Source: an uncultured Clostridia bacterium (lineage in GTDB: Bacteria > Bacillota > Clostridia > Christensenellales > UBA1242). From it: a DNA stretch of 64,000 nt. Below, in pieces: positions 62,160 through 63,293 of this stretch; position 1 is the first letter of the stretch; each line of letters opens with the position of its first letter. The stretch lies in the NCBI GenBank assembly GCA_937893125.1, contig CALBHW010000059.1, positions 17,838 to 81,837 on the forward strand, given 5' to 3'. The position numbers and the translations under genes are program-made. The notes under the pieces were generated by a model. The model had not been told where the DNA came from. It ran no database searches and was given only the letters and a program-made list of their open reading frames with translations.

Positions 62160-63293
62160 GTGGAAAATTTAAACGAAGCATCTATGAGACATCTTAGCAT
62201 CTTTGCTTTGCGTGATATAGCGCGTAATGTCGGTGTTAAATGCCCAACAGTACTAAAAAAAGAGCAACTTATTGACCAAATTATGAAAATAATGTCGGGA
62301 GAAATCGTCCCTGAAATTCCAAAAAGTAGACAAGGGCGACCACCTAAAAATAGGGCAAAAATCACAGTCTCGAAAGAAGATGAAGATTTAAACGCTATTT
62401 TTAACGATAAGGAAGTTAAAATTGAGTTTAGTCCAGAAGAAGCAAAATGGCTTTTTTGTGACAATGCGGAAAAAAGTGGCATTTATGATAATAAATTTGA
62501 CTTTCGTGATGGTGAAGGGTATGTTAACTTTGTAAATGATAGACTTTATGTCTTTCCTTTTGAAAACAATTATGGTCGTGATTACGCGATTCTTTTACCA
62601 AAAGCGGTTGAACCAACGCCAGCTTTAAGGTCGGGGGACTTGGTTAAGTGCTTGTATAAGTATTCGGAAAATTGTCGATTTATGGTTTGTAACAAAATCA
62701 AGAATATGCCTGAATTCGAAGCGGAAAGACCATTTTTTGATAGTATTAAGCGTATTATTCCAACTAAACCTATCGAAATTTTGTCTAAAAAGGTCAAACT
62801 TGGGGACAAAATCATTGTAAAAGTCAACAATTTTAGTGATTATCCTGATGCCGTGAAAAAAATCAATTCACAAGTTAAAGATTGTACTGTCTTAAATCTT
62901 GTTCTTGACTCGCTTGTTGAAGATGATTATTCGGAAGTTGAAACAATGCGTTCATATGCGGGTGACTCGACAAGTAAAAACACAATGATTGTTAAACTCG
63001 CAACCGACAGAGTTAAAAGGCTTGTCGAAGAAGGCAAAAATGTTGTCCTTTGTATTAACGAACTTTTAAAAATTGTTAAATTTCAAAATTATTTGTATGG
63101 CTATGATTATGGTTCGGTTAGGACGAGTTCTTTTTCAAGTGTTTTAAGTTTAATTAAACTTGCTGGTGCTTACGAAAATGGTGCAACGGTTACTATTTTT
63201 GCAATCGTTAAAAATGATAAAGTTTCGCAATGTGGCGATTATCTTTTAAACGAACTAGAGAATATGAATTGCAAAATTTACGAAGAATATTGA
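62160..63293 (+). CDS. Rho-derived protein lacking the P-loop (Rho_N + degenerate OB + degenerate RecA-like core, C-terminally short)
   Basis: GTG start with AGGGGTG upstream. The Rho N-terminal SAP-like helix pair reads [33 protein letters not shown]. By-eye collinearity with E. coli Rho: [21 protein letters not shown] aligns with [21 protein letters not shown], and [11 protein letters not shown] aligns with GGSLTIIATAL. There is no GxxxxGK[ST] anywhere. At the Walker-A position the sequence is [17 protein letters not shown]. Confidence 0.55.
   Translation: [377 protein letters not shown]

Follow-up and report, generated by a model that had tools for sequence, protein, structure and literature searches.

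The 64,000-nucleotide stretch of DNA considered here (contig CALBHW010000059.1 of an uncultured Clostridia bacterium; hereafter the window) carries near its right-hand end a run of sporulation genes that is followed by an open reading frame (ORF) at 62160..63293 on the + strand. The product of this ORF, a protein of 377 amino acids (aa), descends from Rho over all three domains. In all close relatives the gene order is spo0A, x, veg, sipL, spoIIR, sleB, ypeB and then the Rho-like gene, and in the window the neighbours of the latter were confirmed by Pfam. Rho is regarded as an RNA-dependent motor, with conservation at its highest in the ATPase domain. The protein described below has kept the fold and lost the residues on which the motor depends.

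The Rho-like gene and its product

The ORF starts with GTG. Public gene calls use an internal ATG at 62184 instead, which yields a product of 369 aa (P0001; here and below P-numbers denote representative proteins and L-numbers the loci of relatives). The N-terminal extension encoded from the GTG aligns in register with the M-x-x-x-DE-x-x-x-R beginnings of the orthologs, and the longer product is therefore preferred.

Descent from Rho was established by profile and structure comparison. A profile built from 12 family sequences aligned with a profile of 12 canonical Rho sequences with an hhalign probability of 100 (E 2.5e-45) over 416 columns, running from residue 2 to the C-terminus and including the OB and RecA-like parts. 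The AlphaFold2 (AF2) model of the 377-aa protein (predicted local distance difference test score, pLDDT, 78; predicted template modelling score 0.68) has helices at residues 6-10, 14-24 and 34-45 in the N-terminal bundle and beta strands within 115-180 in the OB domain, with pLDDT <50 for residues 55-112. When the model was searched against the PDB with Foldseek, the top 50 matches were Rho chains exclusively (best E 1.6e-17), and the core superposed on these chains over 283-297 columns at a root-mean-square deviation of 3.4-4.0 Å. Both common descent with Rho and its three-domain fold (N-terminal helix bundle, OB domain, RecA-like core) were thus found. The collinear matches to Rho listed in a first-pass annotation, made from the window sequence without database searches, were all recovered by MAFFT alignment with E. 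coli Rho and canonical clostridial Rho and by the profile-profile alignment; the counterpart EGGSLTIIATALID of the fourth match in the RecA-like core was reproduced as well.

Single-sequence searches gave a weaker signal, with E 2.6e-4 for PDB Rho chains and 3.5e-6 for the NCBIfam rho model, and the membership cutoffs were not reached for TIGR00767 (26.1 bits versus a curated cutoff of 509.45), NF006886 (26 versus 315) or the Rho short-form model NF041509 (20.5 versus 628). A Pfam scan of the 377-aa protein detected neither Rho_RNA_bind nor ATP-synt_ab, and Rho_N scored below threshold only. Neither the anti-phage defence library PADLOC nor the phage protein library PHROGs returned a match to the protein at E<=0.01.

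Every element required for catalysis and translocation has been lost (positions are those of the aligned E. coli Rho residues unless given for the window protein). In the P-loop, which aligns gap-free, K181 is replaced by F, G183 by D, K184 by Y228 and T185 by P229, and neither GxxxxGK[ST] nor the Rho-type AxxKxGKT motif occurs anywhere in the 377 residues. The catalytic glutamate E211 is replaced by S251 and the arginine valve R212 by L252. The Walker B aspartate D265 has become N300, followed by a glutamate, E301. The Q-loop is 4 residues shorter than that of E. coli Rho with no lysine aligned to K283, and the R-loop (site of E. coli K326) has the sequence KNDKVSQCG. The last residue of the protein corresponds roughly to residue 349 of E. 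coli Rho, some 70 aa early, or ~90-130 aa early when compared with clostridial Rho, so that the C-terminal subdomain with the arginine finger R366 is absent; no C-terminal Rho remnant was found in any frame 3' of the stop codon. In Rho the arginine finger acts across the subunit interface, of which this subdomain and the ATP pocket form part. Because Walker A, the catalytic glutamate, the arginine valve, Walker B, the Q- and R-loop elements and the arginine finger are all lost, no Rho-type ATP hydrolysis or translocation is expected, and judged by its sequence the protein cannot be a Rho-type ATPase or RNA translocase.

These comparisons support the earlier proposal of an ATPase-dead protein that lacks the Walker A P-loop, and the gap-free alignment means that a corrected frameshift could not restore the motif. 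One small detail of that proposal needed amendment. The Walker B acidic pair was said to be lost, which holds for the aspartate and not for the glutamate that follows it. The C-terminal truncation is real.

The RNA-binding surface of the OB domain is altered too. In E. coli Rho, F62, F64, R66, D78, Y80, E108 and Y110 are the primary-site residues for YC dinucleotides, R66 and D78 being those specific for cytosine. In the window protein F62/F64 are replaced by L/Y and R66 by F, and D78, Y80 and Y110 are not kept; family-wide, the R66 position is mostly F, W, H or L.

Table 1. Coordinates in the window of the Rho-like gene, its parts and the flanking transcription and translation signals
Feature	Position	Strand	Basis
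Hairpin followed by a U-tract after ypeB, likely intrinsic terminator	61937..61977	+	RNA fold, -20.3 kcal/mol, z -3.9
Sigma-A (sigma-70) type promoter, TTTACT, 17 nt spacer, TATACT	62107..62135	+	Consensus scan
Ribosome-binding site AGGGGTG, 7 nt 5' of the GTG start	62146..62152	+	Direct sequence reading
Coding sequence, Rho-derived pseudo-ATPase, 377 aa and stop	62160..63293	+	Alignments, hhalign, Foldseek, dN/dS 0.05 versus L089
N-terminal helix bundle, aa 1-47, counterpart of the N-terminal domain of Rho	62160..62300	+	Pfam Rho_N, E 0.0026 (below gathering score)
Basic 13-aa motif including RQGRPPK, aa 54-66, with GRP core	62319..62357	+	Invariant alignment columns
Variable, acidic, probably disordered linker, aa 67-112	62358..62495	+	Low pLDDT, 16% mean identity, pI 4.5
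OB/cold-shock-like domain, aa 113-185, homologue of the primary RNA-binding domain of Rho	62496..62714	+	hhalign and MAFFT
RecA-like core without catalytic residues, aa 216-377	62805..63290	+	Foldseek core alignments, motif table
Degenerate P-loop NNFSDYPD, aa 223-230, replacing PPKAGKTM without indel	62826..62849	+	Alignment
DSLVEDD, aa 250-256, replacing DERPEEV	62907..62927	+	Alignment
Helix and strand common to Rho, aa 286-301; RLVE and V295 invariant; Asp265 replaced by Asn300	63015..63062	+	Alignment
Intrinsic terminator-like hairpin, 37 nt past the stop, 19-pair stem then T-run	63330..63373	+	Terminator scan

Purifying selection and an inverted conservation gradient

The window protein belongs to a large, unannotated family. 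An exhaustive profile search returned 4042 proteins at a threshold of E<=1e-3, with 294 clusters left at E<=1e-30, where a word-indexed protein search had found 13 clusters only. Genome records place the family in metagenome-assembled genomes (MAGs) from the gut that are labelled as uncultured Christensenellales or 'Clostridia bacterium'. A search with a 45-sequence family alignment was dominated by canonical Rho, and while the canonical matches, including P0170 (Clostridiales), bear Rho names, the sole name given to a degenerate member was 'hypothetical protein' (P0169). Among 149 non-canonical representatives with lengths of 330 aa or more, the GK[ST] of Walker A is missing in 142, and none combines GK[ST] with E211 and R366.

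The losses form a graded series. Forms of 430-470 aa (P0011, L019, P0164) keep ERPED and a C-terminal TRK remnant in the absence of Walker A; a few members keep a GxxGSGK[ST] loop and have lost the remaining elements; and forms of 340-430 aa, with the window protein among them, are devoid of all motor elements. The minority that retains GK[ST] at Walker A comprises P0043, P0045, P0051, P0067, P0161, P0144 and P0151. Five of these carry a classical GE[KR]GSGK[ST]-type loop, unlike the PPKAGKT of Rho, and P0144 and P0151 carry other variants; E211 and R366 occur together in none of them, and those shown have an unconserved Q-loop. These members may still bind nucleotide.

The distribution of conserved residues is opposite to that of canonical Rho, where the invariant columns lie nearly all in the ATPase domain. 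Over 18 orthologs the mean pairwise identity is 58% in the N-terminal bundle and 64% in the region of the GRP motif, compared with 16% in the linker, 26% in the OB domain and 33% in the RecA-like core. Further, 19 of the 30 invariant columns of the 12-sequence family alignment fall within the first 63 residues. The strongest constraint therefore lies on the N-terminal helix bundle and the RQGRPPK motif and not on the OB or RecA-like parts. Within the motif (pI 10.9), G59-R60-P61-P62-K63 is invariant in the same alignment; its GRP core with basic flanks resembles an AT-hook, a likeness of motif only. The N-terminal module, RGRPPK included, is also present in the canonical clostridial Rho proteins P0013, P0170 and P0171, so it has been inherited and is not new. 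When the N-terminal 70 aa were used as a lone query for other architectures, nothing was found in the word-indexed search, whose index sets the limit here. The linker that follows occupies the position of the insertion region of Type 2 Rho, and at the other end the RecA-like core terminates after the strand equivalent to 'MELHL' of E. coli Rho.

The gene is under purifying selection and is not a pseudogene. Against the 84%-identical ortholog at L089, the nonsynonymous rate (dN) is 0.087 and the synonymous rate (dS) 1.78, giving a dN/dS of ~0.05 that is approximate because dS is near saturation; in the same comparison the neighbours spo0A, sipL, spoIIR, sleB and ypeB have ratios of 0.02-0.07, and the Rho-like gene evolves about twice as fast as they do. 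When computed by domain, the proportion of nonsynonymous differences (pN) is 0.013 for aa 1-66 and ~0.09-0.11 elsewhere, with synonymous proportions (pS) of 0.54-0.73, so that pN lies far under pS in each domain, the dead RecA-like core included. In 18 independently assembled orthologs, some as distant as ~27% identity, the reading frame is intact and ends at the same point. The three marks of a pseudo-enzyme, namely descent from an enzyme family, absence of the residues essential for catalysis and purifying selection, are hence all present, and the calculation of dN/dS recommended by the first-pass annotation turned out in favour of a maintained gene.

Against this background, two sceptical explanations carry very little weight. 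One holds that the ORF is a decaying rho pseudogene, or an artefact of assembly or annotation in which a truncation or frameshift masks the P-loop. The loss of all catalytic motifs and of the C-terminus and the doubled evolutionary rate would fit such decay. However, the intact frame and common stop in independently assembled orthologs, the low dN/dS with pN far under pS in all domains, the conserved promoter and ribosome-binding site and the absence of a C-terminal remnant downstream all speak against it. The P-loop region aligns free of gaps, so that no frameshift could restore it, and the orthologs, at 84% down to ~27% identity, are not copies of one misassembled contig. Decay or artefact is accordingly very improbable and was rejected on the selection and synteny data. 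The other explanation, that the protein is not Rho beyond a generic Rho_N/SAP-like N-terminus and that the remainder belongs to another RecA-like or an unrelated family, could appeal to the sub-threshold Rho_N match as the sole Pfam signal and to NCBIfam scores far under their cut-offs. Yet the hhalign match spans the OB and RecA-like parts, the top structural matches are Rho and not F1, RecA or DnaB, and graded intermediates connect the protein to canonical Rho. On the strength of the Foldseek top hits and the profile-profile alignment this explanation was rejected too, and we regard it as next to impossible.

Origin and proposed function

The first-pass annotation described the protein as a Rho paralog, a status that is not established. 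Basal, partly degenerate members of the family sit at the canonical rho locus and others directly after spoIIR, in the manner of canonical rho in related Clostridia, which favours a degenerated resident rho. Canonical rho follows a Lactamase_B_3 (metallo-beta-lactamase, MBL) gene in L007, L044, L091 and L095 and lies two genes past spoIIR in L040 and L044. The partly degenerate forms at L033 and L056 directly follow the same Lactamase_B_3 gene, and the long degenerate P0164 directly follows spoIIR. In a neighbour-joining distance tree the degenerate forms all fall into a single clade (bootstrap 98) nested within the canonical Rho of Clostridia, with stepwise erosion in the order MBL-linked, spoIIR-linked long, ypeB-linked long and ypeB-linked short forms. 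No locus with two Rho-like genes was seen among ~30 degenerate-bearing loci of ~20 kb each. Published surveys list many Clostridia and Bacillota as Rho-negative by hidden Markov model (HMM) criteria (PMC13613805, PMC11347177). Because of the loci held by the basal members, the tree, the single Rho-like gene per locus and the Rho-negative surveys, erosion of the resident rho is somewhat favoured over a duplicate that stands beside a working Rho. A scan of the genome collection also found no assembly with both forms, but the patterns used match only 1 of 102 canonical Rho proteins; the scan is uninformative and was dropped as evidence.

The gene appears to be transcribed on its own. Of 20 orthologous genes, whose proteins are as little as ~25% identical, 19 have at the equivalent site a -35/-10 pair of the form TTTAC[AT]-17-TATA[CA]T or a close variant (e.g. 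TACAAT). No promoter of the SigF, SigG, SigE or SigK type was seen upstream on inspection by eye, without a formal scan. For the hairpin after ypeB, 0 of 200 shuffled sequences fold as well, and a simple terminator scan raised no flag there; this likely ypeB terminator would separate the Rho-like gene from the sleB-ypeB unit. With its own promoter and flanking terminators, the gene is therefore read as a monocistronic unit with a housekeeping-type promoter. Just 5' of the -35 element, at ~62085..62100, many orthologs have AATTCAAAA (L013-L015, L017, L019, L024 and L026 among the regions compared), and some carry the palindrome TTTTACAAAAATAT..TTTTGTAAAA in its place; either might serve as UP element or operator.

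Taking the sequence evidence together, we consider it reasonably probable that the protein is a Rho-derived pseudo-enzyme that arose from Type 2 clostridial Rho and acts as a binder through its N-terminal module, and that it is a degenerated resident rho in preference to an extra copy. Its source would be the Type 2 Rho, which bears an insertion, of a Christensenellales-like clostridial clade; it would have retained the three-domain fold and discarded the motor determinants and the C-terminal subdomain. The gene would be transcribed alone from its conserved housekeeping-type promoter, with selection concentrated on the basic N-terminal helix bundle and RQGRPPK that it has in common with the canonical Rho of the same clade. 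We infer that this module would act independently of ATP and without a motor, by binding nucleic acid and/or RNA polymerase, or whichever partner it touches in canonical Rho. The OB domain and the dead RecA-like core would then provide a structural scaffold, and the lineage would have given up Rho-dependent termination. The suggestion of the first-pass annotation that the protein is kept for binding RNA or Rho is not established, given that R66/D78 and the secondary-site loops are unconserved and the arginine-finger subdomain is missing.

Some points weigh against this reading. Promoter and terminators were called from matches to a consensus, the dN/dS ratios are approximate as stated above, and the single clade may owe something to long-branch attraction in a distance tree. 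The neighbourhood downstream of ypeB differs from the canonical MBL-rho context and would fit a relocated duplicate too. Finally, nucleic acid and RNA polymerase are no more than candidate partners of the N-terminal module, and its AT-hook is a motif likeness. The wider proposition, that a whole radiation of uncultured spore-forming gut Clostridia is without a working Rho, its rho having been converted to a motor-less N-terminal-module factor, can be advanced only tentatively.

Alternatively, the protein could be a true paralog that modulates a coexisting, working Rho. It might poison or cap rings in which both kinds of subunit are mixed, or compete for contacts with RNA or RNA polymerase, for instance to lower termination at the onset of sporulation. 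In B. subtilis the level of Rho must fall for sporulation to start, and the expression pattern of Rho changes as sporulation proceeds (PMC11599450), which lends this idea some appeal, as do the spo0A...spoIIR-sleB-ypeB neighbourhood in all close relatives, the genomic context distinct from that of canonical MBL-rho, and an N-terminal module nearly the same as in canonical clostridial Rho that could compete for its partner. However, no canonical rho was found in the ~30 degenerate-bearing loci, of which ~20 kb each was covered, and the promoter is of the housekeeping and not the sporulation-sigma type. The poison-subunit version in particular ranks lower because the arginine-finger subdomain is deleted and the RecA-like core, only 33% conserved, is a weak basis for a conserved heteromeric interface. 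Modulation of a resident Rho is thus an unlikely explanation. A role in sporulation or germination proper, in which the Rho fold is reused outside transcription (e.g. as a nucleic-acid-binding or structural factor of the forespore) and is tied to spoIIR, sleB and ypeB, seems to us quite improbable. It would account for the adjacency to sleB-ypeB, which persists from 100% to ~25% identity and even in the inverted block of L015, and for the restriction of the members found to MAGs that have sporulation genes close by; Rho of B. subtilis, moreover, influences spore morphology and germination (PMC11599450). Against such a role stand the separate sigma-A-type transcription unit with a terminator after ypeB and the members at L020, L021, L023, L031, L033, L056 and L094, which are not beside ypeB; further, canonical rho is itself spoIIR-linked in L040 and L044, so that the linkage may be inherited. 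The degenerated resident rho with a binding N-terminal module remains the reading that we prefer.

Among known systems, the closest is canonical Type 2 clostridial Rho (P0013, P0170; classification in PMC11347177), with the same three-domain order and fold. Both have ...IFxLRxIxRxxGVxSPT... and RGRPPK in the N-terminal bundle, a variable linker before the OB domain, a KRLVExGKxVV helix-strand and a GxSxT strand, and linkage to spoIIR occurs in related genomes. In contrast to Type 2 Rho, the window protein is without the motor residues, the Q- and R-loop lysines and the arginine finger, has lost the C-terminal ~70-130 residues and the cytosine-specific residues, and conserves its N-terminus better than its ATPase core. 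The Group B or Type 4 proteins (NF041509, 'Rho, short form') are likewise shorter than normal Rho, and a genome may have one as its second gene of the Rho type. In Group B the N-terminal domain is missing and the catalytic residues are retained, as is the bicyclomycin pocket (PMC11347177), whereas the window protein shows the opposite, with the N-terminal domain kept and the catalytic residues lost. Cyanobacterial DUF4912 proteins and plant RHON1 (PMC13613805), called 'Rho-like', also have a Rho_N-type domain in a non-ATPase, but without an OB or RecA-like part, both of which the window protein, a demonstrable descendant of full-length Rho, keeps. Dead members of other enzyme families likewise persist as scaffolds; in ImuB of the Y-family polymerases (PMC6511836) the fold is kept, catalysis lost and selection purifying; this is an analogy only, as fold and pathway are unrelated.

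In a 2024 survey of 2730 genomes Rho's ATPase domain was highly conserved, second copies kept their catalytic residues, and the term 'Rho-like' was reserved for partial-domain proteins (PMC11347177). Searches of the literature text gave no description of a full-length ATPase-dead Rho, which agrees with the earlier remark that no such protein was known to its author. The Rho fold probably serves a new purpose here that needs no motor, in a large selected family that keeps the scaffold yet discards the motor, in contrast to the catalytic second copies of the survey. The family offers a handle on motor-independent functions of the Rho N-terminal domain and a lineage marker for an abundant group of uncultured gut bacteria, and it cautions that HMM-based 'Rho-negative' calls in Clostridia may conceal Rho remnants. 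If a working Rho is present beside it, the protein would instead be a candidate for a natural modulator of Rho with a link to the control of sporulation; should the loss of Rho throughout the radiation prove true, it would constitute a natural experiment on an ATP-independent role of the N-terminal domain, e.g. in binding RNA polymerase or nascent RNA.

Neighbouring genes and minor observations

The adjacency of the Rho-like gene to ypeB persists over the whole range from 100% to ~25% identity of the Rho-like protein, and the neighbours are far better conserved than the protein itself, YpeB and SleB being 86% and 89% identical where it is 53% identical. In L015 (9998..15889) the sipL-spoIIR-sleB-ypeB block is inverted and converges on the Rho-like gene, with the adjacency kept. 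L005 (5052..5861) and L019 (453..1274) have a short YpeB of 269-273 aa, as opposed to the usual ~440-500 aa, in which the PepSY part alone was detected; these genomes carry the long degenerate form of Rho.

Downstream, a convergent ORF of 2800-2900 aa without a Pfam match enters the window at ~63567..64000 (-) and lies at 11383..19977 (-) in L001, where a gene of the TraG/VirD4 coupling-protein type lies next to it (20390.., -). Both are syntenic in relatives down to ~30% identity of the Rho-like protein. At the other end of the window lie two tandem giant ORFs, at 101..16189 (+, 5362 aa) and 16440..33320 (+, 5626 aa), in which no Pfam-A family was found at E<=1e-5 in three pieces of 2500-2860 aa that together spanned the entire 5362-aa product and the N-terminal 2700 aa of the other. 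Directly 5' of spo0A, ORFs at 51973..53001 (+, 342 aa) and 53354..54760 (+, 468 aa) have no Pfam match at E<=1e-5 and are syntenic in relatives.

Over 46034..61909 the gene order in the window is holB, yaaT (PSP1), a yabB-like methyltransferase gene, two Gate-domain genes (-), tatD, ksgA, x and x, continuing with spo0A, x, veg, sipL, spoIIR, sleB and ypeB. This resembles the origin-proximal yaaT..ksgA..veg block of B. subtilis, with sporulation genes interleaved. In the canonical-Rho relatives L007 and L091, rho adjoins the yabB-rsmI-Gate genes.

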